From an uncultured Gammaproteobacteria bacterium (lineage in GTDB: Bacteria > Patescibacteriota > Patescibacteriia > Magasanikbacterales > UBA922), in assembly GCA_964566225.1 (NCBI GenBank), contig CAZMHV010000001.1, positions 21,963 to 85,962 of the forward strand: a stretch of 64,000 bases of DNA, read 5' to 3'. This document shows positions 7,018 to 55,138 of this stretch, piece after piece. The translations under genes were made by a program, and so were the position numbers. Numbering within the stretch: position 1 is the first letter of the stretch; every line of letters begins with the position of its first letter. Under the pieces are notes generated by a model, which was not told where the DNA came from, did no database searches, and was given only the letters and a program-made list of their open reading frames with translations.

Positions 7018-7305
7018 ATGATTACCAAAGAAAGAGTCATCGAAGAACTCGAAACAATTTATGATCCGGAAATTAGTTTGGACCTGTGGACACTGGGACT
7101 CATTTACAATATTGAAATTGAAAGTGAAACCCATGTCAAAATTACCATGACGTACACGACGCCGCTGTGTCCATTTGGGCCGGCGATTAAAAACGAAGTA
7201 GAGGACGCTATGCATGATATTGGTTTCAAAACTGCAGAAATTGATGTGACGTTTGACCCACCTTGGAAACCACCAGAAAATCTCCGTACCATGCTTGGTT
7301 TGTAA
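7018..7305 (+). CDS. sufT: DUF59/MIP18-family Fe-S assembly protein (SufT-like)
   Basis: ETIYDPEISLDLWTLGLIYNIEI...TPLCPFGP is the conserved DUF59 core. Starts 2 nt after the sufC stop. Confidence 0.7.
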   Translation: MITKERVIEELETIYDPEISLDLWTLGLIYNIEIESETHVKITMTYTTPLCPFGPAIKNEVEDAMHDIGFKTAEIDVTFDPPWKPPENLRTMLGL

Positions 7306-7378
7306 AAAGAAAAAACAGCCGGTGAAGACTGTTTATTCTTATAAAAAAGATTCCAAATTTTTAGAACATTTTTGATAC

Positions 7379-7400
7379 GGGGCGGCTTTTACACCGCCCC
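7379..7400. terminator. strong GC hairpin (GGGGCGG-8nt-CCGCCCC) downstream of the 51-aa ORF; no adjacent U-tract
   Basis: 7-bp all-GC stem read directly. Lies 10 nt past the ORF stop on the minus strand. Confidence 0.4.
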
Positions 7401-7410
7401 AGAGTGAGGC

Positions 7411-7566
7411 TCAGGGCCCGCCGAAGAGGCGGAGCAGAGTCGTCAACCAGCCACCGTTGCACCCGATGGCGAACTCGCTGGCCTGGGCCGCGGTCGCCGT
7501 CAAGATGACGGTAGCGCCGGCGAGGACGTCGGCGTTCTCCTTGATCAGATTCATCAAATTTTTCAT
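7411..7566 (-). CDS. GC-rich small ORF, 51 aa (MKNLMNLIKENADVLAGATVILTATAAQASEFAIGCNGGWLTTLLRLFGGP), unknown function
   Basis: AGGAAA SD 5 nt before ATG. Very high GC3. Below the ORF-track length cutoff. Canonical promoter 120 nt upstream. Confidence 0.4.
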   Translation of the reverse strand: MKNLMNLIKENADVLAGATVILTATAAQASEFAIGCNGGWLTTLLRLFGGP

Positions 7567-7683
7567 GTCGTTTCCTAATCACTGTAGGATGTCGAAGAGA
7601 AAAAAACGAACTCTCCCGATGCCTCCTATTACGGAGGCCCTCGAATATACCTCATCACCGCTCCTTCTGCTGAGGTTCAACGC

Positions 7684-7712
7684 ACCATATCAAATTTATT
7701 TAATTTTGTCAA
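7684..7712 (-). promoter_or_regulatory. sigma70-like promoter (TTGACA-17nt-TATGGT) feeding a roughly 120-nt leader and then the 51-aa ORF
   Basis: Hexamers read on the minus strand. The leader holds an SD+ATG mini-ORF (MRYIRGPP), a GCCTCC/GGAGGC hairpin and a U-run. Confidence 0.35.
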
Positions 7713-7732
7713 GGAGTACTGTGGAAGAGTAT

Positions 7733-8038
7733 ATGAAACAAATTCGAGTCTGTGACAGCCGTTCGTGTACGGTTTTTGGCGCCCATTCTGTGATGGATGC
7801 AATTACCGAAGAAACTGGTTTAAAACCAGGCGAAAAAAACGAAAACTATGATGTGGATTGGTGTGGATGCCTTGGCTGGTGTTCTAATTCGCCAAATGTT
7901 GAAGTGGATGAAAAGCGAATTATTATGGAGGCTGACCCCAAAAACATTGTGCAGAGGATAGATAAAAACGAGGGTGAAGATATTACCGGAGAAATCATCG
8001 ATATTTTCAAAATGGATAATTTTTTGGGTGATTTATAA
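7733..8038 (+). CDS. thioredoxin-like [2Fe-2S] ferredoxin (NuoE/HoxF-N family)
   Basis: VCDSRSCTVFGAHSV...VDWCGCLGWCSNSP gives the four-Cys pattern. The real start is taken at 7733, not the upstream GC-rich extension. Confidence 0.6.
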   Translation: MKQIRVCDSRSCTVFGAHSVMDAITEETGLKPGEKNENYDVDWCGCLGWCSNSPNVEVDEKRIIMEADPKNIVQRIDKNEGEDITGEIIDIFKMDNFLGDL

Positions 8039-8095
8039 AGGTTGAAAAGTACTTGATGGTATGGTACTCTAGGTATCGTAAAAATAATTTTTTGT

Positions 8096-8440
8096 ATGTC
8101 TCTTGATGCTGAAAAAATAATGAAAGACAATAATGATAAGGCTGCAGCCGACGCCAGTGTGGCAGTGCCAGCAGATTTGCCAGAAAACATGTCACAGGGC
8201 ACTCGCAAAGCTGGTGGCAAAATTCGCCGTATTGTGATTGATCGTGCCATGTGTATTGGTGCCCAATCGTGTGTTGTGGTTGCCGACAAACTGTTTCAAA
8301 TGGACGATCAAAATCTCGCTTACATTGTTGACCCAGATGCGCACAACGAAGATGAAGTGTTGCTGGCTGCGCAAGCATGTCCAGTGCTCGCCATTTTACT
8401 CTACGATGAAAATGGAAAGAAAATTTTTCCTGAAAGTTAA
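8096..8440 (+). CDS. small ferredoxin (single [Fe-S] cluster, divergent type)
   Basis: IDRAMCIGAQSCVVVA...AAQACPVLAI. The 3' end carries a 28-bp sequence repeated at 9884. Confidence 0.55.
   Translation: MSLDAEKIMKDNNDKAAADASVAVPADLPENMSQGTRKAGGKIRRIVIDRAMCIGAQSCVVVADKLFQMDDQNLAYIVDPDAHNEDEVLLAAQACPVLAILLYDENGKKIFPES
8408..8435. repeat. 28-bp direct repeat copy 1 (GAAAATGGAAAGAAAATTTTTCCTGAAA)
   Basis: 27/28 identical to 9884..9911. The two copies are read in different frames at the 3' ends of two unrelated genes. Confidence 0.6.
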
Positions 8441-8526
8441 AATTCTTTTGGACAATACATTTTTCAAATTTCTAGATAATTTTTGGTTTTTGTGGTATTC
8501 TCTGATGAGAAAAATCTCATAAAAGT

Positions 8527-9909
8527 ATGCCTTTTTTTACAAAAAAATTATTATTTTTATATTTTTGTTTCGTTTTGTTGCTTTTTGCTACACCTGTTCA
8601 TGCTGATTATACAGACGATTCGCAGGCTGAGTTTGATGCTGGTACCCATACCAATACACAGTGGGATAGTAGTAATAACTGGCTTGAAATGAGTGCAACG
8701 GGACAGACCAATACCTTTGCTACCTATACATCCAGAATTATTGATTCAAATTCTGCAACGACGAATTGGAATACCTTTTCTTGGGTTCCTCAGTATCCCT
8801 ACTTGAAAGAACTTCCAAATTCAGGTGCAACAGAAACATCGTATACTTCTGGAAACATGAACATGAATCAAAATGTTTTGTTGTTACACCTCAACGATAC
8901 TTCTGGAGTTATCACTGATAGTTCTGGTAATTCCAATAATTTGACTAATTCAGGGGCCACTTACTCAGCTGCTGGGCAGTTCAATACAGCAATGAGTTTT
9001 AATGGAAGTTCGTCATATATGTATGTGGCTGATACGAGTAGTTTAAATGCTACCAGTTCGCTTACTGTCTCTGCCTGGTTTAAGATTTCAGCAGATCAAT
9101 CAAACTATTCAACTTTAGTAAGTAAGTTTGCAAGTGGTTCGAGTAATGGTTGGAACTTAGCGGTAGATAATGGAGCCGGCAGTGCTCGTTTTTGGGTAAA
9201 GGTTGGGGCTACAAATAAAGTAGTTACTTTTTCCAATAATCTTATTTCATTAAATGTTTGGCATAACCTTACTGGTGTGTATGATGGTTCTGCTGTAAAA
9301 ATATATTTGGATGGAGTTGAAAAAAGTACCGTAGCTGCAGCGGGGACGATTACGAACTCATCAGATAGTCTTTTGGTTGGAAGGTTATACCCGGCAACGA
9401 GTGATTTCTATTTTTCTGGGTCTATTGATGAAGTGGCTGTTTGGACAAGAGGTTTGAGTCCTACTGAGGTGTTAAATTTATATAAACGTGGGGCCTTGCG
9501 ACTTCGTCTTCAGGTTCGCAGTTGTAATGATGCTCTTTGTTCAGGAGAAAGTTTTGTTGGACAAAGTAGTTCTACTGATGCTCAATTCGAAGAACAAGAT
9601 ACAAACACAACTTCGTTACCTTCATTTAGTTTGGCAAGTGCTGTCAGTGCAAATGAATTTTTTCAATATAGGGTTGTCTATGAAACGTCAAGTTCTACTC
9701 TTACCTCAGAGTTAAAGTCAGTAACCGTAGCAACTACTGATTCAGGGGGTGGCGGAGGTGGAGACACTGCTGTTCCAGAGTTTAGTGATTTTGTATTTTT
9801 TTCGTCAGTTCTTTTTTCATTGTTCTTTTTTGTAAAAAGAATACTTCCCAAATATGCTGCGTATAGTCTTATTTTTTTGCGACGAAAATGGAAACAAAAT
9901 TTTTCCTGA
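8527..9909 (+). CDS. secreted LamG/concanavalin-like domain protein, paralog A, with VPEF + hydrophobic + basic C-terminal sorting-signal-like tail
   Basis: Signal peptide. LamG_3-like core (VSAWFK..WHNLTGVYDG..IYLDGV..SGSIDEVAVW). C-terminus GGDTAVPEFSD + TM + VKR. Confidence 0.7.
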   Translation: MPFFTKKLLFLYFCFVLLLFATPVHADYTDDSQAEFDAGTHTNTQWDSSNNWLEMSATGQTNTFATYTSRIIDSNSATTNWNTFSWVPQYPYLKELPNSGATETSYTSGNMNMNQNVLLLHLNDTSGVITDSSGNSNNLTNSGATYSAAGQFNTAMSFNGSSSYMYVADTSSLNATSSLTVSAWFKISADQSNYSTLVSKFASGSSNGWNLAVDNGAGSARFWVKVGATNKVVTFSNNLISLNVWHNLTGVYDGSAVKIYLDGVEKSTVAAAGTITNSSDSLLVGRLYPATSDFYFSGSIDEVAVWTRGLSPTEVLNLYKRGALRLRLQVRSCNDALCSGESFVGQSSSTDAQFEEQDTNTTSLPSFSLASAVSANEFFQYRVVYETSSSTLTSELKSVTVATTDSGGGGGGDTAVPEFSDFVFFSSVLFSLFFFVKRILPKYAAYSLIFLRRKWKQNFS

Positions 9910-9911
9910 AA
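9884..9911. repeat. 28-bp direct repeat copy 2
   Basis: See 8408..8435. Confidence 0.6.
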
Positions 9912-9953
9912 TAGAATGATTTCCCCGCCTGGTGGTAAATTCTCTGCTTCATA

Positions 9954-9985
9954 AAAAAAACGACTCACAAGTCGTTTTTTTATAT
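9954..9985 (+). terminator. rho-independent terminator (CGACT-CACA-AGTCG hairpin + T-run)
   Basis: Flanking A-run and T-run read directly. Confidence 0.45.
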
Positions 9986-10065
9986 TTTTGAGGCAAATTT
10001 TTTTTAGTATACGTCTATATTTTTTTCAAAAAATGTTGTATACTTATATACATAAAGTAGTAAGT

Positions 10066-11445
10066 ATGGGTGAATTAAAAAAAATTATTCTTTTTTTATA
10101 CTCAATCTTCATTGGTGTATTTTTCTTTTTTGATACTACGCAGGCTAGTTATATAGATGATACCCAATCAGAATTTGATTTGGGTACGTATGCTGACATC
10201 CAGTGGGATCAGGTAAATTCATGGTTAGAGTTGGATGCAACGGGTTTATCTACAAAAGTTGGAACCTATACCTCCAAAATTTTTGACTCTACGTATAGTT
10301 CTACGGTATGGAACACGTTGTCCTGGAGTCCACATTTTCCTTATAATAAACCACTTCCAAATTCAAACGCTACAGAGACAGCCTACTCATCTGGAAATTT
10401 TGCAATGACGAGTAATGTACTTTTATTGCATATGGATGAGTCCAGTGGAAATTTGGTTGATAGCTCTGCTTCAGGGGGAAGTTGTACTGCTTCTAATCTA
10501 GCATATGGTACCAGTGGGCGATTGTCATCAAGTATTGACTTAGAACGAACCAATTCAGCAAAGGCGAGCTGTGGCGATAGTACTGACTATTCTTTTACCA
10601 ATGGAAGTGGTACAGATTTACCGATGAGCATATGTACCTGGTTTAATTTGGAGTCAACCCAAGCTGCTGATGGTCAAGAAATTATTTCAAAGATAAGTAC
10701 TGGTGCTTACGAATGGCAGATGTTAATAGCGCCAAGTAATAGAATCAACTTTTGGGCATATGGAGGGGGTTCTAGTGCAAATTATATAGGAGGAAGATCT
10801 GATGTAAATGCGTTTACGAGTACTGGAGTATGGTATCATCTTTGTGTTACCTACAGTGGAAATGAGGCATCAAGTGGTTTTAAAATGTATTTAAATGGAA
10901 GTCAAATCAACTTTACAGGGTCTTCTGGTGGTACCTATACTGGTATGTCAAATACTGCTGCACCAGCGGTTGTCGGAGCCTTAAATATTGGAGCTGATCC
11001 CGAATACTTTGATGGAAAACTCGATGAATTAGTTGTGTTCAAAGACAGAGTACTTACTGACTCTGAGATTCTCAACATGTATAGGAGAGGAACACTCAAT
11101 CTCAAATTTCAAGTACGCAGTTGTGACGATGCTTCGTGTGTTGGTGAAAATTTTGTAGGACAGGATGGTCTTACGAGTAATTATTATGAAGAATCTGACG
11201 TCACAAGTTTGGGGCTCCCTTCATTTGATATTTCTACGGCTGTTTCTACCAATCGATATTTTCAATATAGAGTTCAATATGTGACGACCGATTCATCGTA
11301 TTCTCCTGAAATATTATCAATTACCATTGATAATACAAATGGTGGAGATACGGCTGTGCCAGAGATGAGCGATGTTTTGATATCTCTGAGTGTTGTTTTT
11401 TCTCTGTTATTTTTGAGCAGAAAAAAGTTTCTTGAGGCACAATAA
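10066..11445 (+). CDS. secreted LamG/concanavalin-like domain protein, paralog B, VPEM + TM + RKK C-terminus
   Basis: Shares long motifs with paralog A (DDTQSEFD.GT...QWD..NWLE.DATG; WNT.SW.P..PY; RSC.DA.C; YFQYRV; GGDTAVPE). Start chosen at the signal-peptide ATG. Confidence 0.7.
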   Translation: MGELKKIILFLYSIFIGVFFFFDTTQASYIDDTQSEFDLGTYADIQWDQVNSWLELDATGLSTKVGTYTSKIFDSTYSSTVWNTLSWSPHFPYNKPLPNSNATETAYSSGNFAMTSNVLLLHMDESSGNLVDSSASGGSCTASNLAYGTSGRLSSSIDLERTNSAKASCGDSTDYSFTNGSGTDLPMSICTWFNLESTQAADGQEIISKISTGAYEWQMLIAPSNRINFWAYGGGSSANYIGGRSDVNAFTSTGVWYHLCVTYSGNEASSGFKMYLNGSQINFTGSSGGTYTGMSNTAAPAVVGALNIGADPEYFDGKLDELVVFKDRVLTDSEILNMYRRGTLNLKFQVRSCDDASCVGENFVGQDGLTSNYYEESDVTSLGLPSFDISTAVSTNRYFQYRVQYVTTDSSYSPEILSITIDNTNGGDTAVPEMSDVLISLSVVFSLLFLSRKKFLEAQ

Positions 11446-11460
11446 ATATACTGTATAAAT

Positions 11461-11492
11461 AAAAAAACTCGGACAAATAGTCCGAGTTTTTT
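11461..11492. terminator. bidirectional intrinsic terminator (CTCGGAC-AAATA-GTCCGAG, A-run/T-run flanks) between the LamG gene and clpB
   Basis: Perfect 7-bp stem read directly. Confidence 0.6.
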
Positions 11493-11502
11493 AAAAGTTT
11501 CT

Positions 11503-14184
11503 TTACTTCACACTCATTACGGCCTCCCGCTTCACTTCACTCTTTTTCTTTACAATCTCTAGCACATCTTTATCAACATCAACTTTCACCGTATCACCCT
11601 CGTGAATTTTTCCTTCAATAATTTGCATGGCCAGTGGATCAAGCACTTCAGATTGCAACACACGCTTCAAAGGTCGTGCACCGAGGTCTGCATCAAAGCC
11701 TTTTTTGCCGAGCCAGTCCTTGGCGCGAGCGGTCACTTCCACCGTAATACGTTTTTCTTGCAAACGTGTCATCACGTGTTGCAATTGCAAATCCACAATT
11801 AAGCGAATTTGTTCTTGGTCGAGTGGGTGGAACATAATAATGTCGTCGATGCGGTTCAAAAATTCTGGTTTGAACTGTTCTTTCAAAGATTCCATTACTT
11901 TGCCTTTGATTTCTTTTTCATTGGCGTGTACACCTTCAACACGAGATTCACCAAATCCAAATGATCCACGTTTACTCATAGCCACAATGGCTTCTGATCC
12001 AATGTTACTGGTCATAATAATCACCGTGTTTTTGAAATTGACTTTGCGTCCTTTGCTATCAGTCAAATGTCCGTCTTCAAGAATCTGTAACATGATGTTA
12101 AACACTTCTGGGTTTGCCTTTTCAATTTCATCAAACAAAATAACAGAGTAGGGTCGTCGACGAACTTTTTCTGTGAGCTGTCCACCTTCTTCGTATCCAA
12201 CATAGCCAGGAGGGGATCCAATCAATTTTGAAACAGAATGTTTTTCCATCAGTTCACTCATGTCCACACGAATCAGCGCATCATCATCGTTGAACAAAAA
12301 TCCTGCGAGCGCGCGAGCCATTTCTGTTTTACCCACACCGGTTGGTCCCATAAAAATAAATGAACCAATCGGACGTTTTTCTTCAGATACTCCGGCACGA
12401 GATCGACGAATAGCATTACTCACCGCTTTAATCGCTTCTTCTTGCCCCACCACACGGTGTTGCAATTCTTCTTCCATCCGTGCCAATTTTTTCATGTCGT
12501 CTTCGAGCATTTTAATAACTGGAATTCCAGTCCAACGTGCTACCACCGCAGCAATATCTTGTTCTGTCACTTCTTCTTTCAAAATAGCACGGCCTTTTTG
12601 CACGTCGCCAAGTTTTTTCTCTGCATTTTTAATTTCCAATTCTTTTTGAGGAATAGCACCATAGCGAATCTCGGCAACTTTTTGAAGTTCACCACGACGT
12701 TCAGCAATTTCGGCCTCTTGTTTCAATCGGTCAATTTGCTTTTTTTGATCACGAATATTGGTAATAATTTCTTTTTCATTTTTCCAGTGCACTTCAAGTG
12801 CATTACTTTTTTCACGCAAATTTTCCAATTCTTCTTTGAGTTTTTTCAAGCGTTGTTTCGAATCTGGATCAGATTCTTTTTTGAGTGCTTGTTGTTCAAT
12901 TTCCAGTTTCATCATTTTGCGTTTCATTTTGTCGAGCTCATCTGGCATAGAGTCAATTTCCATACGCAGAGCAGACGTTGCTTCGTCGATCAAATCAATG
13001 GCTTTGTCTGGTAAAAAGCGATCAGTAATATAACGAGAAGACAATTCTACCGCGGCCACAATCGCAGGGTCAGTAATACGCACACCATGATGCACTTCAT
13101 ATTTTTCTTTGATACCACGGAGGATGGCAATGGCATCGTCCTTTGAAGGTTCAGTCACAAACACTGGCTGAAAACGTCGTTCAAACGCAGCATCTTTTTC
13201 AATATATTTTTGGTATTCTTTGAGTGTGGTTGCACCAATGGTGTGGAGTTCACCACGAGCGAGCGCAGGCTTGAGCATGTTCGATGCATCGATCGCACCC
13301 TCCGAAGAACCTGCGCCTACAATAGTATGCAACTCATCAATAAACAAAACAATTTTTCCCGCAGACTCGGTTACTTCTTTTAAAACAGCCTTGAAACGTT
13401 CTTCAAATTCACCACGGAATTTTGTTCCGGCCACGAGTGCCCCTACGTCAAGTCCAATAATTTCTTTTTCGCGTAAAGACTCGGGCACATCGCCTTTGAC
13501 AATTCGTTGTGCCAATCCTTCCACAATTGCAGTTTTACCCACGCCTGGTTCACCAATCAAAACAGGATTATTTTTGGTTCGGCGAGAGAGCACCTGCATC
13601 ACACGGCGTACTTCGTCATCGCGTCCAATCACTGGGTCAAGTTTTTCTTGACGAGCTTTTTCTGTAAAATTTTGTCCGTATTTTTCAAGCGCCTGATATT
13701 TACTTTCGGGTTCTGGTGAGTCAACGCGTTGGTTGCCACGCACTTGCACGAGCACTTTCAAAACATTGTCATAATCCACTCCCATTTTGGCAAGTAAGTC
13801 ACTAATTGGATTGTGTCCACGCAAAAAGGCGAGCAATAAATGTTCGACACTAATAAAGTCATCACCCATTTTTTTGGATTCTTCTTGGGCGTATTGCAAA
13901 ATATACATCATGGGCTGTCCCATGAGAATTTGACCAAAGCCACTGCCTGGCATGCCACCAAACTGTTTGGGCAGGGCATTAACCATGGCTTGAATGTGAT
14001 CTTCGAGCAGGGCAATATTCACATTCATTTTTTTCAAAACCGAAATCACCACGCCTTCGTCTTGTTCAAGGAGTGACAAAAACAAATGCGGTGGTTCCAC
14101 CTGCGGCTGACCATTTTCATTACTTATATGCCCAGCGCGTTGCAGGGCTTCTTGGGATTTGTGGGTAAATTGTTGTGGATTCAT
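11503..14184 (-). CDS. clpB: ATP-dependent chaperone ClpB
   Basis: Two AAA+ modules (GEPGVGKT; GPTGVGKT), long coiled-coil M-domain, Clp N-domain. Start taken at ATG (MNPQQF) rather than the upstream GTG. Confidence 0.9.
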
Positions 14185-40985: not shown

Positions 40986-41178
40986 TTTTGGAATTTCGTC
41001 CTGGCTCCGTATTGGCTGTGGACTCATCAGATTCTGCATCACAGAATGATTCCCCCAGATGCTTGCCGAGTCAAGCTTCTGGGTCATGCTTCTTTCTCCT
41101 TAGTGAGAAGCATCCTTGTTGTGGGTGATCAATGAAGATCATTGTTGCCAAGAGGTCTCGGTGTCTCTTGGCAGGTGC

Positions 41179-41520
41179 TCACGTGCCGGTGGCTTGCCGC
41201 AGGTCCTCGTGGAACTGCGCGCCGTCGAACAGGCGCTCACTCTGCGCGGGCTGGGCGTGGTGGCCCACGAGGGAGTCGAACATCCCCTCGCGGTCGTCAT
41301 CGACCAGTTCCACCTCCCCGGGCCAGCCGTCTTCGTGTCCGTCGACCCGGTCCGTGGTCACGCTCACCTCGGTGTCCACGTCCATCACGTGCGGGGCGGC
41401 GTTGGCCGGCTGGGTGTGGACCACCTGCACGACCACGGTTTCGGCCGGGGGCGTGGCGAGGTAGGCGGGCGTTCCGCGCATGGCGGGGCGGGGGGCGTCG
41501 TCGCTCATCCAAGGAAACAT
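41179..41520 (-). CDS. GC-rich acidic hypothetical protein (113 aa: MFPWMSDDAPRPAMRG...)
   Basis: GGAGAG SD 5 nt before ATG. GC3 about 90% in this frame. Overlapping ORFs in the other five frames are treated as GC shadows. Confidence 0.45.
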   Translation of the reverse strand: MFPWMSDDAPRPAMRGTPAYLATPPAETVVVQVVHTQPANAAPHVMDVDTEVSVTTDRVDGHEDGWPGEVELVDDDREGMFDSLVGHHAQPAQSERLFDGAQFHEDLRQATGT

Positions 41521-41581
41521 GGTTCTCTCCGTCTCGTGAAGGCAAGCTCTCGCTCGCCGTTGGGTTCGCCCGTCGATCGCG

Positions 41582-41628
41582 GGCACCAAAAAATTTTTGT
41601 CTCCGAGACTTAAAAATTTTTTGGTGCC
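41582..41628. repeat. 47-nt near-perfect palindrome: 17-bp perfect arms GGCACCAAAAAATTTTT / AAAAATTTTTTGGTGCC around an inner GTCTC-CGA-GAC mini-hairpin
   Basis: Arms are exact reverse complements. Lies between two co-directional GC-rich ORFs. Confidence 0.75.
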
Positions 41629-41716
41629 TACGATTTTTTTTGAGAAATTGAAATGGCGGGCGGTGCAGTTCTCCTTTCTATTGATGCACCGTGTTTGCCA
41701 CCCCGAAATGGGAAGA

Positions 41717-42085
41717 TCAGTGGACGTCGGCGTCGCCCTTGGGGAGGTACGAGCCCTCCTCCAGGGTGAACTCGTCGTCGATCACGGAGGTGATCTGGTA
41801 GCGGATTTCGCCCGTCACCATATCCCGTTTCACGATCATGCGCGTCTCCACTGGGCGACATGTCTCGAAGTCGTCGTACTGGTGGTTCTTCACCGCCTGC
41901 TTGACGATGTCTTCGCCAGCGTCGTGCTCGTCGCACTTGGGCGACACATCCACGGTCGGCGCGGGCCGACGGATGAACGTGATGGCCTCGTCCTTTTGGG
42001 GCTGCAGCGGGTTCATCACCTGCCACAGGCCGAAGAAGAACATGGCCATCAGCGCCGCAATCTGGGCAAAGAGCTTCCAGCTCAT
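41717..42085 (-). CDS. GC-rich membrane-anchored hypothetical protein (122 aa; N-terminal TM MSWKLFAQIAALMAMFFFGLWQVM)
   Basis: GGAGAGGG SD. High GC3. One TM helix then a soluble domain. Confidence 0.45.
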   Translation of the reverse strand: MSWKLFAQIAALMAMFFFGLWQVMNPLQPQKDEAITFIRRPAPTVDVSPKCDEHDAGEDIVKQAVKNHQYDDFETCRPVETRMIVKRDMVTGEIRYQITSVIDDEFTLEEGSYLPKGDADVH

Positions 42086-42306
42086 GTAAATCCCTCTCCA
42101 GTCAACATGGTTGTCAAACAAACGGTGACATCGCACCGCCATTTCAACTTCTCAATATAAATGCCAAAATACAGCAATTTCGCTGTACCGTTTGAGTTGT
42201 AAGAAACTGAGATGGGTGCGGCGCGACAGACAGAAGATCCTCCTGGATTCTTCTGCTGTATCGCTTACCCCCACCACCTGCTCGAGTCGCCGTTCGTCCG
42301 TGAGGA

Positions 42307-42480
42307 CTACTGGCGGCGGCTGGGCAGGTCGCCCGCCGGACGCGTCCGGGGCGGGCTGTTGAACCAGGCCTCTTCGACGGGGTCGAACCCGTCCTTCTCA
42401 CCCGGGTTGTTCGGACCCTCCGGACCGGGGATCTCGATGCAGGGGGTGGCGTCGGTGGTGATGTTCCTCTCGGGGGCCAT
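42307..42480 (-). CDS. GC-rich Pro/Gly-rich small ORF (57 aa)
   Basis: GGAGA SD, high GC3, downstream hairpin. The antisense ORF 42212..42628 is a competing call. Confidence 0.3.
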   Translation of the reverse strand: MAPERNITTDATPCIEIPGPEGPNNPGEKDGFDPVEEAWFNSPPRTRPAGDLPSRRQ

Positions 42481-42587
42481 TGGGGGTCTCCGTATTCTAG
42501 TTCCCGTTACCACGGGAGGGGCGGGGGTAAGTGCGATTGGTATCGCGCCGCCATCTCAATTTCCTTCAATTGTAAACGGGAAAGGAT

Positions 42588-42616
42588 ATCACAAAACAAA
42601 GTTTTTGTCAAGTCCT
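42588..42616 (-). promoter_or_regulatory. sigma70-like promoter TTGACA-17nt-TATCCT on the minus strand, heading a roughly 110-nt leader into the GC-rich cluster
   Basis: Read on the minus strand. Coordinates are approximate (within a few nt). Confidence 0.35.
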
Positions 42617-53788: not shown

Positions 53789-55138
53789 ATGAAATTGTTT
53801 CAAAAGGTCAGCACATTTACTTTTTTTGTGTCGGCCTTTTTTTTATTTCATGCTTCAATAGCACAGGCGAGTATTTTTACTGATACAAACTGTGCTTCAG
53901 AATTTGATAACGGTACACATAACAACACAGTTTGTGCTGGAGGCAATATGAAGCTCGATGCTACCGGACTTTCAAATGGTTCAGGTGTATTTACTTCTCG
54001 TGTTTTCAATACCCAGGCTGTTTTAAATACATTTTCATTTTTGAGTTGGGCATCACAGTATCCATATGGCAAAGAGTTGGTTGATTATGCACAGAATGAA
54101 AGTGGATATACCACTGGAAATATTTCAATGGAAAGCAATGTCTTGCTGCTTCACTTGAATTCGAACAGTACTTGGGGCGAAGGACTTGAAAGACAAAGTT
54201 TTGTCAATACTGCTACCTACTCAACATCATTCGCTGAGTGCTGGACAACTGATACTTGTCCTGTATCTGCAGACGGTAAATTAAGTTATGGATATAACTT
54301 TGATGGTGTCAATGATTTATTGGTCGTATCATCAACTTCTGAACTGCAACTTACGAATGCTTTTACCGTATCAGCATGGGTCAAACAGGATACTGCTGGC
54401 GACTCCAATAGTGATATGGTCGTAGTTGGAAAGGAAAGTGGCTCCAAAGGGTATTTGCTACGCACTGGTGGAAGAAAAGTAGAAGTGAGTGTTGGGGATG
54501 GAAGTAGTTGGCATACACTTACTGCGAGTAGTACATTTTCACTTGGAACTTGGCACCATATTGCGGCTACCCTGGAAAACAATGTTTTGAAAGTATATCT
54601 CGATGGATATCTCGACGGAATGGCTGACCAAGGTTCATCTACGGTGATTGCAACTTCTACAAGTCTCATCGCGATTGGGAACTCTCCTGCAGATAGTTCT
54701 CGTGCCTTTGATGGTACACTTGACGAAGTTGCGGTATTTAATAGTGCATTGACTGCTGATGATATTTTGAATATGTATATTCGTGGAGCACTCAATGTGA
54801 GATATCAGATCAAAATTTGTGATACTTCAAACTGCTCTGGTGGATATATTTTTACTGGTCCAAATAATACTGGTGAAACATATTATAGTGAACTGTTGAC
54901 CTTGTCAGAGAGTGCGCCAATGAAAAGTATTGGACAGAGTTATAACTATCCATATATTCAGTATAAAATGTATCTCGATACCGCCAGTACTACTTTATCT
55001 CCACAAATTGAAAGTGTTTCAATTTACTATAACATCTTTAGCACTGTTCCCGAAGGTATGACTTGGGCCTTTATTGGTGGTGCCATGTACATTATTTTTG
55101 TTATGAAGAAAAAATACCTCCAGGGCAAGGAGGTATAA
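53789..55138 (+). CDS. secreted LamG/concanavalin-like domain protein, paralog C, VPEG + TM + KKK C-terminus
   Basis: Shares SEFDNGT..., LSWASQYPYGKEL, VLLLHLN, LDEVAVFNSAL, IRGALNVRYQIKICDTSNCSG, YIQYKMY with paralogs A and B. Confidence 0.65.
   Translation: MKLFQKVSTFTFFVSAFFLFHASIAQASIFTDTNCASEFDNGTHNNTVCAGGNMKLDATGLSNGSGVFTSRVFNTQAVLNTFSFLSWASQYPYGKELVDYAQNESGYTTGNISMESNVLLLHLNSNSTWGEGLERQSFVNTATYSTSFAECWTTDTCPVSADGKLSYGYNFDGVNDLLVVSSTSELQLTNAFTVSAWVKQDTAGDSNSDMVVVGKESGSKGYLLRTGGRKVEVSVGDGSSWHTLTASSTFSLGTWHHIAATLENNVLKVYLDGYLDGMADQGSSTVIATSTSLIAIGNSPADSSRAFDGTLDEVAVFNSALTADDILNMYIRGALNVRYQIKICDTSNCSGGYIFTGPNNTGETYYSELLTLSESAPMKSIGQSYNYPYIQYKMYLDTASTTLSPQIESVSIYYNIFSTVPEGMTWAFIGGAMYIIFVMKKKYLQGKEV

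Follow-up and report, generated by a model that had tools for sequence, protein, structure and literature searches.

A putative exosortase-class sorting signal on lectin-like surface proteins of Patescibacteria, and a ferredoxin gene relic at the end of one of their genes

Sorting of secreted proteins by exosortases and archaeosortases, which act on a C-terminal signal consisting of a short motif, a transmembrane (TM) helix and a basic cluster, is known from archaea and from Gram-negative bacteria. In Haloferax volcanii, as described in PMC6098224, ArtA carries out a PGF-CTERM motif-dependent C-terminal cleavage of Sec and Tat substrates, including the S-layer glycoprotein, with covalent lipid anchoring. 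Here we analysed a 64-kb window (the whole stretch of 64,000 nucleotides (nt) taken from contig CAZMHV010000001.1) of a magasanikbacterial genome belonging to the Candidate Phyla Radiation (CPR; Patescibacteria). It contains three paralogous genes, A, B and C, which encode LamG-domain proteins ending in a tail of the form [VI]PE[F/M/G]-x followed by a TM helix and K/R residues. We consider it likely that this tail is a signal of the exosortase/archaeosortase class, a 'VPEFS-CTERM' variant standing between PEF-CTERM and VPEID-CTERM, and that a direct repeat found at the end of gene A is a separate matter, a relic of the neighbouring ferredoxin gene. Attachment to host cells is believed to be the way of life of CPR bacteria. 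Little has been described, to our knowledge, of the means by which adhesins are held on their envelope, and our literature search found no paper linking exosortases or archaeosortases to the CPR.

The three genes and the parts of their products are listed by position, strand and identity, with the evidence in brackets (aa, amino acids; ORF, open reading frame).

8527-9909, plus strand: paralog A, 460 aa (ORF call, Pfam, alignment)
8527-8604, plus strand: signal peptide of A (alignment of A, B and C)
about 9001-9471, plus strand: LamG domain of A (Pfam)
about 9500-9770, plus strand: C-terminal module of A (alignment of A, B and C)
9772-9840, plus strand: putative sorting tail of A, residues 416-438, VPEFSD, 15-residue hydrophobic helix, KR (11-sequence alignment)
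9841-9906, plus strand: post-anchor extension of A, ILPKYAAYSLIFLRRKWKQNFS (BLASTP against homolog P0003, reading frames)
10066-11445, plus strand: paralog B, 459 aa (ORF call, Pfam)
about 10594-11070, plus strand: LamG domain of B (Pfam)
11356-11427, plus strand: putative sorting tail of B, residues 431-454, VPEMSD, hydrophobic helix, RKK (alignments, structure model)
53789-55138, plus strand: paralog C, LamG protein of 449 aa (ORF call, Pfam, alignment)
55046-55114, plus strand: putative sorting tail of C, residues 420-442, VPEG, hydrophobic segment, KKK (alignment, tail catalogue)

Two Logan contigs of the same strain, 99.99-100% identical to the window, independently gave the same gene calls for A and B. 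All three products belong to the Laminin_G_3 family (PF13385), with E-values of 8.5e-29, 1.1e-19 and 6.5e-30 for A, B and C and scores of 101.1, 71.5 and 104.7 bits, respectively, against a cutoff of 27.6. The initial annotation, made from the sequence, had described LamG paralogs at these positions, and the ORFs and domain matches agree with it. A three-way alignment (42% identity between A and B, 33% between A and C) showed a common organization in which an N-terminal signal peptide is followed by a conserved N-terminal domain, the LamG core and a QVRSC[DN]DAxCxGE...[YF]FQYR module, and in which an invariant V-P-E stands just before a C-terminal hydrophobic helix and a K/R cluster. The common signal peptide, the RSC.DA.C...YFQYR module and the tripartite tail of VPE[F/M/G], TM helix and K/R had all been claimed before, and each was visible in A, B and C. 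Hydropathy analysis placed TM segments at the N- and C-terminal ends of A and B. The N-termini of the three proteins are hydrophobic and have A-x-A-like sites, as in secretion signals, when judged by hydropathy and alignment rather than by a dedicated predictor. An AlphaFold2 model of B built from a 40-sequence alignment (mean predicted local distance difference test score (pLDDT) 88.9, predicted template modelling score 0.84) was all-beta up to residue ~423, disordered at residues 427-433 (GDTAVPE, pLDDT <50) and formed one long helix at residues 436-458. A fold search with B returned the lectin-like receptor-binding domains of clostridial neurotoxins (template modelling score about 0.37), and a profile search of the PDB, with matches in the LamG region only, returned an S-layer protein, pappalysins, pentraxins and neurexin. 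These matches indicate that A, B and C are binding modules and not enzymes. Assignment to the TafC family fimbrial proteins (NF052521) was rejected, since the scores of 54.9 and 51.2 bits came from the LamG region only and the cutoff is 410. On this sequence basis we regard A, B and C as Sec-exported cell-surface proteins with a lectin (LamG) fold.

The tail was aligned in 11 tail-bearing homologs that are 32-42% identical to A. The P and E residues before the helix (P417 and E418 in A) were invariant in 11/11 sequences, and F was the next residue in 9/11. We then scanned 2609 ORFs, comprising the window and all fetched loci, for the form [VI]PE[FYMG]-S/x followed by 13-20 hydrophobic residues and K/R. 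The scan yielded 17 distinct [VI]PE[FYMG] tails, and the few remaining matches to the loose pattern were plainly unrelated proteins. The tails end in a basic cluster at the C-terminus, with 22 extra residues beyond it in A. The carriers came from Peregrinibacteria and Peribacteria (L010, L013, L014, L037), Magasanikbacteria (L012, L067), Nomurabacteria (L028, L044) and from one contig of Nanoarchaeota (L009), where three proteins carried the tail. One of the latter is an FG-GAP protein, and the same VPEMS version as in B was found in a 435-aa CPR FG-GAP_2 protein (L093) which has no LamG domain and whose C-terminus reads DDVPEMSTYLYILVLVLFTGFMWK. The tail is therefore present on several proteins of one genome, three of them in the window, and on unrelated ectodomains. 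The initial annotation had proposed a search for other proteins ending in VPEx-TM-K/R; they proved to exist both among LamG homologs and among the non-homologous FG-GAP proteins. When compared with the curated PEF-CTERM model (TIGR03024, cutoff 23 bits), the nanoarchaeal tail scored 23.4 bits alone and 16.7 bits within the full-length protein. As judged from these alignments and scans, the tail is a portable, conserved domain. The contig with the PEF-tailed nanoarchaeal proteins encodes one further protein (L009, 10364-11326, minus strand) that ends in ...PTPIPIILPLILFLISLIIIFIIIELFLKKRMKKK; here a different motif precedes a TM helix and a basic tail, which may be a second sorting signal.

An enzyme of the exosortase family was detected in related genomes, the reference case being the following gene.

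L014:4553-5476: exosortase-family protein P0057 of Peribacteria, 307 aa, 7 TM segments (PF09721, TIGR04178)

P0057 scored 49.8 bits on PF09721 (Exosortase_EpsH, cutoff 25.7) and 42.5 bits on TIGR04178, the generic exosortase/archaeosortase signature (cutoff 23). The best specific model for it was XrtE (VPEID-CTERM), with 59 bits against a cutoff of 150, and on ArtC it scored 22.6 bits against a cutoff of 100. The gene sits 4.4 kb upstream of a VPEFS-tailed LamG gene (L014:9869-11650). A homolog, P0093, directly adjoins the gene of the VPEMS-tailed FG-GAP_2 protein ending in DDVPEMSTYLYILVLVLFTGFMWK, and this arrangement was seen on three contigs. A subfamily profile built from P0057 and the Peregrinibacteria homolog P0058 found 993 representatives at E<=1e-3 and 161 at E<=1e-10, nearly all of about 300 aa; in a word-index homolog search the exosortase alone led to 2 proteins and a 70-sequence profile to 6. 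Three residues, C208, R258 and H279, were invariant across 70 subfamily members. All of these (70/70) matched the generic exosortase signature, 62/70 matched XrtE/VPEID and 22/70 matched ArtC/PEF, so that the nearest curated subfamilies are those with signals most like VPEFSD. The best E-values of the 70 members to specific models were about 1e-16 (6.9e-16 for ArtC), which means scores far below the cutoffs, as measured directly for P0057, and no specific NCBIfam model claims the subfamily. P0057, P0058 and P0093 all show the signature score, the polytopic topology and the invariant Cys and Arg of exosortases and archaeosortases. By profile matching, the enzyme of these relatives is a member of the exosortase/archaeosortase superfamily and of no named subfamily. 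In one further locus (L097, 924-3568) the exosortase gene directly follows a gene for an undecaprenyl-diphosphate-synthase-like prenyltransferase and lies beside a prepilin peptidase gene, a context that possibly points to a lipid acceptor or to a connection with pilus biogenesis. We also observed a protein (P0207, 567 aa, on a 67.6-kb ENA contig) which joins an exosortase domain (PF09721) and a CPBP/Abi protease domain (PF02517); its architecture is XrtE-like and it is distantly related to the CPR subfamily.

We infer that a cognate enzyme is encoded in the genome from which the window was taken, and, by analogy with ArtA and PGF-CTERM of Haloferax, that the tail is cleaved and the protein passed to an acceptor. 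After export, the TM helix would hold the protein in the membrane, and a polytopic exosortase-family enzyme of ~300 aa with invariant Cys, Arg and His would recognise VPEF in the disordered linker at the outer face. The enzyme would cleave at the VPEF motif and then transfer the ectodomain to a lipid or envelope acceptor, and the outcome would be a set of covalently anchored adhesin-like proteins. The tail would work like the PEF-CTERM, VPEID-CTERM and PGF-CTERM signals, but it belongs to no curated family.

Several results weigh against a sorting signal of this class. No exosortase was found in the window when a local hidden Markov model of the subfamily was run over every window ORF, and a Pfam search of the multi-TM and unassigned window proteins detected no exosortase, sortase or rhomboid. 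Over the window and about 1.4 Mb of fetched loci the local model matched only in L014 and L087, and no exosortase was found within 10 kb of the genes for P0003, P0005, P0022, P0048 and P0002. Likewise, no tail-bearing gene was found beside the CPR-type exosortase in 3/5 loci (L087, L097, L099), for which <=10 kb per side was recovered and for L097 only 3.7 kb in all; the exosortases of these three loci sit among housekeeping genes. The neighbourhood link between enzyme and tail thus consists of two cases. Given about five enzyme loci and ten tail loci, this exceeds the expectation for single-copy genes in ~1-Mb genomes, a result that is statistically only suggestive. The tails of A, B and C matched no curated sorting-signal model of NCBIfam at E<=10, and the full-length proteins matched none either. 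In C the motif is VPEG and the hydrophobic segment is short, and the continuation of A and P0003 for about 22 residues past the basic cluster is uncommon among signals of this kind.

Some of these results suit a simpler explanation, in which the tail is a permanent C-terminal TM anchor of type I membrane proteins, VPEF is a structural hinge and the organism has no dedicated enzyme. The failure to find an exosortase within the 64-kb window, the lack of a curated model for the window tails and the extensions of A and P0003, which would be long cytoplasmic ones, would all be expected of such an anchor. However, proteins that are 32-42% identical would not need to keep P-E unchanged, and always equally far from the helix, for the sake of a hinge, and a hinge should not recur on unrelated FG-GAP ectodomains of both bacteria and archaea. 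The archaeal tail also reaches the PEF-CTERM cutoff, and exosortase genes adjoin genes of such proteins twice. We therefore consider a permanent anchor unlikely. That the tail is a divergent LPXTG-type signal for a classical sortase is highly improbable, since, despite the same tripartite layout and sub-threshold matches of the nanoarchaeal tail to LPXTG_anchor (13.2 bits, cutoff 15.9) and to a sortase B target model, the tail lacks a T-G motif like that of LPxTG, no sortase-signal model was matched by the window tails and no sortase was present among the multi-TM and unassigned window proteins scanned, a scan that was not exhaustive over the window. An exosortase/archaeosortase-class signal, as the initial annotation had read the tail, is favoured by the recurrence of the tail, by the archaeal score on PEF-CTERM and by the enzyme near such genes in two lineages, but the sorting enzyme expected with it was not in the window.

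Sequence homologs of A, B and C were overwhelmingly from CPR/Patescibacteria, with some from DPANN archaea. In a scan of genome contigs the nearest matches, about 40% identical and 42% at best, came from Peregrinibacteria, Peribacteria and Magasanikbacteria. Judged by these homologs, A, B and C probably belong to a CPR bacterium with affinity to Peregrinibacteria. Most homologs of the ectodomain have a prepilin-type N-terminus (PF07963) and no C-terminal anchor, and a signal peptide with a tail, as in A, B and C, was found in a minority of them. The prepilin N-terminus, G|FTLxE, stands in place of the signal peptide and VPEF tail in P0006, P0008, P0011-P0013, P0016 and others, with examples at L011, L016 and L019. 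These type IV pilin-like LamG proteins of the CPR (PF07963 + PF13385) have an ectodomain homologous to that of the window proteins (30-37% identity), with the N-terminal domain, the LamG domain and the RSCDD...YFQYR module in common. They are anchored through the N-terminal prepilin sequence, without a VPEF tail, whereas in the window proteins a cleavable signal peptide and the C-terminal tail take the place of that sequence. The same binding module thus appears to be displayed in two ways, by type IV pili or by a C-terminal anchor. LamG genes with VPEF tails also stand in tandem pairs in several other lineages, at three loci with differing genomic contexts (L006, 8589-11326; L009, 1-4325; L098, 2158-5760). 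The members of a pair are 48-58% identical and closer to one another than to A or B, a pattern that fits repeated local duplication or concerted evolution. The recurrence of such pairs, together with the similarity within lineages, indicates that tandem duplication of these LamG genes is common.

With more reserve than for the tail itself, we put forward the broader proposal that one undescribed exosortase/archaeosortase subfamily, with 'VPEFS-CTERM' as its signal, is common to CPR bacteria and DPANN archaea. In both of these ultrasmall episymbiont radiations it might covalently anchor lectin-like, probably host-binding adhesins whose ectodomain is alternatively carried on type IV pilin N-termini, and cargo and sorting system might have been exchanged between the two. 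If a dedicated exosortase-type system of this kind exists, the VPEFS tail would be a sequence rule by which the CPR surface proteome can be listed from genomes, and one enzyme would be identified whose loss should strip that proteome. Monoderm-like ultrasmall bacteria would also join archaea and Gram-negative bacteria among the organisms in which this sorting mechanism is known.

The repeat at the end of A involves the ferredoxin gene that lies upstream, and the elements concerned are as follows.

8096-8440, plus strand: 4Fe-4S ferredoxin gene, 114 aa, native C-terminus ...YDENGKKIFPES (Fer4_13 and Fer4_15 matches)
8404-8435, plus strand: repeat copy 1, the native ferredoxin 3' end (repeat search, ortholog L088)
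9880-9911, plus strand: repeat copy 2, putative relic of a ferredoxin 3' end (repeat search, reading frames)
9954-9981, plus strand: intrinsic-terminator-like hairpin with a T run, 3' of A and of the ferredoxin relic (hairpin prediction)

A 28-bp direct repeat had been reported here by the initial annotation. The repeat is real and present in two copies, but its length is 32 nt (8404-8435 and 9880-9911), with 30/32 positions identical and the copies 1476 nt apart. The 28-mer had exactly two matches in the window at <=3 mismatches vs 0 in 100 shuffles, and the possibility, raised earlier, that it is a dispersed repeat did not hold for the window. It was also correct that the repeat exists at the level of DNA, since the copies are read in different frames, as YDENGKKIFPES and a stop codon in ferredoxin and as RRKWKQNFS and a stop codon in A. 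The ferredoxin frame at 9881-9919 reads DENGNKIFPEIE followed by a stop, and the 3' end of A, in a frame other than that of A, reads ...CDENGNKIFPEIE and a stop, after which the hairpin at 9954-9981 is found. The upstream copy is the native one, as the ferredoxins of five orthologous loci (L088-L092, 46-68% protein identity) have kept the C-terminus YDENGKKI[FW]P. The two mismatches are T8407 vs C9883, which turns an in-frame TGA into CGA in A, and G8419 vs C9895, which turns GAA (E) into CAA (Q) in A. Since the ortholog in L088 has T, the C at 9883 is the derived state.

The last 9 residues of A and its stop codon lie inside the repeat, and the remainder of the post-anchor extension ILPKYAAYSLIFLRRKWKQNFS does not. 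Its portion KRILPKYAAYSLIFL aligns with the tail (...KKFVPALRLFL...) of P0003, a homolog with 42% identity whose gene is preceded by one for ThiF and has no ferredoxin neighbour; the BLASTP alignment reaches residue 457 of A. The extension of A is native as far as ...IFL, and the final 9 codons fall within repeat copy 2. This alignment rules out the whole extension as a fusion product. Of the recombination scar with a new tail that had been proposed, the derivation of the copy in A from a ferredoxin 3' end holds, but it concerns only the last 9 codons, the rest being homologous to P0003. The 32 nt of the window ferredoxin are also 30/32 identical to those of L088, from another species, although the whole genes are only 68.75% identical. 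The level of identity therefore does not date the event, and it was rejected as proof of a recent one; conservation of the peptide and AT-rich codon use would explain the identity of the 32-mer between species. The flanks of the repeat aligned no better than shuffled sequence, which rules out the repeat as the mark of a larger duplication. The GC content of A equals that of its neighbours and gives no compositional support for a foreign origin. No mobile-element genes or terminal inverted repeats were found for 8436-9911, in which A is the only gene, and with two repeat copies and no anomalous composition this segment was rejected as a transposable or integrative element. That 8436-9911 is an insertion, as had been suspected, was not borne out, given the lack of mobile-element features and the fact that the identity in L088 deprives the repeat of dating power. 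A scan of 7300-11700 against Rfam gave nothing above gathering thresholds. Read from the two frames and the orthologs, the downstream copy is best taken as a relic ferredoxin 3' end fused to A and translated in another frame as its last 9 codons; such a relic would be an example of a fragment from the end of one gene being recruited to supply the final codons of the gene beside it.

Three scenarios for the origin of the repeat were compared, and a relic of a second ferredoxin gene ranked slightly ahead, none being demonstrated. In the leading one, which is possible though it falls well short of being established, an old tandem duplication of [ferredoxin + LamG] gave fdx1-A-fdx2-B, and a microhomology-mediated deletion left the last ~13 codons of fdx2 fused to the 3' end of A. 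This accounts for the tandem paralogs and the relic together. The relic retains a reading in the ferredoxin frame with its own stop and terminator, and as the 32-mer is 30/32 identical even between species, old duplicates could still match. However, other tandem LamG pairs have no intervening ferredoxin, there is no ferredoxin similarity upstream of 9870, and the loss of the relic's gene must be fairly recent for 30/32 positions to have stayed identical. An origin by insertion of A (8436-9879) within the 3' end of the ferredoxin gene and duplication of a 32-bp target, in which case the right copy with ...PEIE, its stop and the terminator would be the original ferredoxin end, is rather unlikely. 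The direct repeats enclose exactly one gene, a terminator is found 3' of the right copy and none 3' of the left copy, and a LamG gene follows none of the ferredoxin orthologs in other lineages. On the other hand, there is no transposase, integrase or terminal inverted repeat, target-site duplications are typically shorter than 32 bp and the GC content of A matches that of its neighbours; tandem LamG pairs without ferredoxin also recur elsewhere, and the identity level has no dating power. We give about the same low credence to a patch made by short templated repair or gene conversion, for which the ferredoxin 3' end 1.5 kb upstream would have been the template and an already similar, A-rich 3' end of A the recipient. 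The native tail of P0003, ...FLAKKCKQK, does resemble ...FLRRKWKQN of A, including a CAA codon at one mismatch position, and the flanks of the repeat show no homology, but the likeness over these 6-9 residues is possibly compositional, and direct support for a patch is absent.

One more predicted element adjoins the LamG genes.

11462-11492, minus strand: terminator-like hairpin between the convergent genes B and clpB (hairpin prediction)

Elsewhere in the window, which has 40% GC, a 1.5-kb island of 53-72% GC was observed at 41050-42600. It contains no credible ORF (no Pfam matches) and no Rfam family, and a sub-threshold Hammerhead_3 match lies near it (40988-41055, minus strand, 26.8 bits, gathering score 48.5). 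Such an island might be of foreign origin, encode an unknown RNA or result from a chimeric assembly. A 313-nt intergenic region of about 50% GC (7306-7618), between an FeS-assembly gene and a gene for a thioredoxin-like 2Fe-2S ferredoxin, had no Rfam match and is possibly an unannotated RNA.

Among the described sorting systems, PEF-CTERM with archaeosortase C (TIGR03024/TIGR03762) resembles the present case in that secreted proteins have at their extreme C-terminus a P-E-F core, directly followed by a TM helix, and then a basic cluster. Nanoarchaeal homologs of the window proteins reach its cutoff, and 22/70 members of the CPR enzyme subfamily match ArtC weakly. The window tails, in contrast, have no PEF-CTERM score; with no match at E<=10 against a cutoff of 23 bits, membership in TIGR03024 was rejected. 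PEF-CTERM is found in archaeal hosts with archaeosortase C, whereas the present proteins are bacterial (CPR), and the motif is extended here to [VI]PEFS[DNT]. The VPEID-CTERM signal of the exosortase E system (TIGR04162) begins with V-P-E as here, and XrtE was the best specific match of the enzyme, found for 62/70 subfamily members. The motif there is nevertheless VPEID, as against VPEFSD here. TIGR04162 is a model of 516 positions, by its description a fusion of exosortase and protease, whereas the CPR enzymes, at about 300 aa, stand alone. Membership in XrtE was rejected for the 307-aa enzyme, which has no protease domain and scored 59 bits vs 150. PEP-CTERM with exosortase A (EpsH) shares the enzyme superfamily (PF09721) and the tripartite layout of the signal, but it is a Gram-negative system linked to exopolysaccharide loci, often with an EpsI partner (as in L096), and the CPR loci are without these features. 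PGF-CTERM with ArtA of H. volcanii is the experimentally studied member of the class (PMC6098224); it differs in its motif, in its enzyme subfamily and in its archaeal lipids, and it serves as the mechanistic model for the system proposed here.

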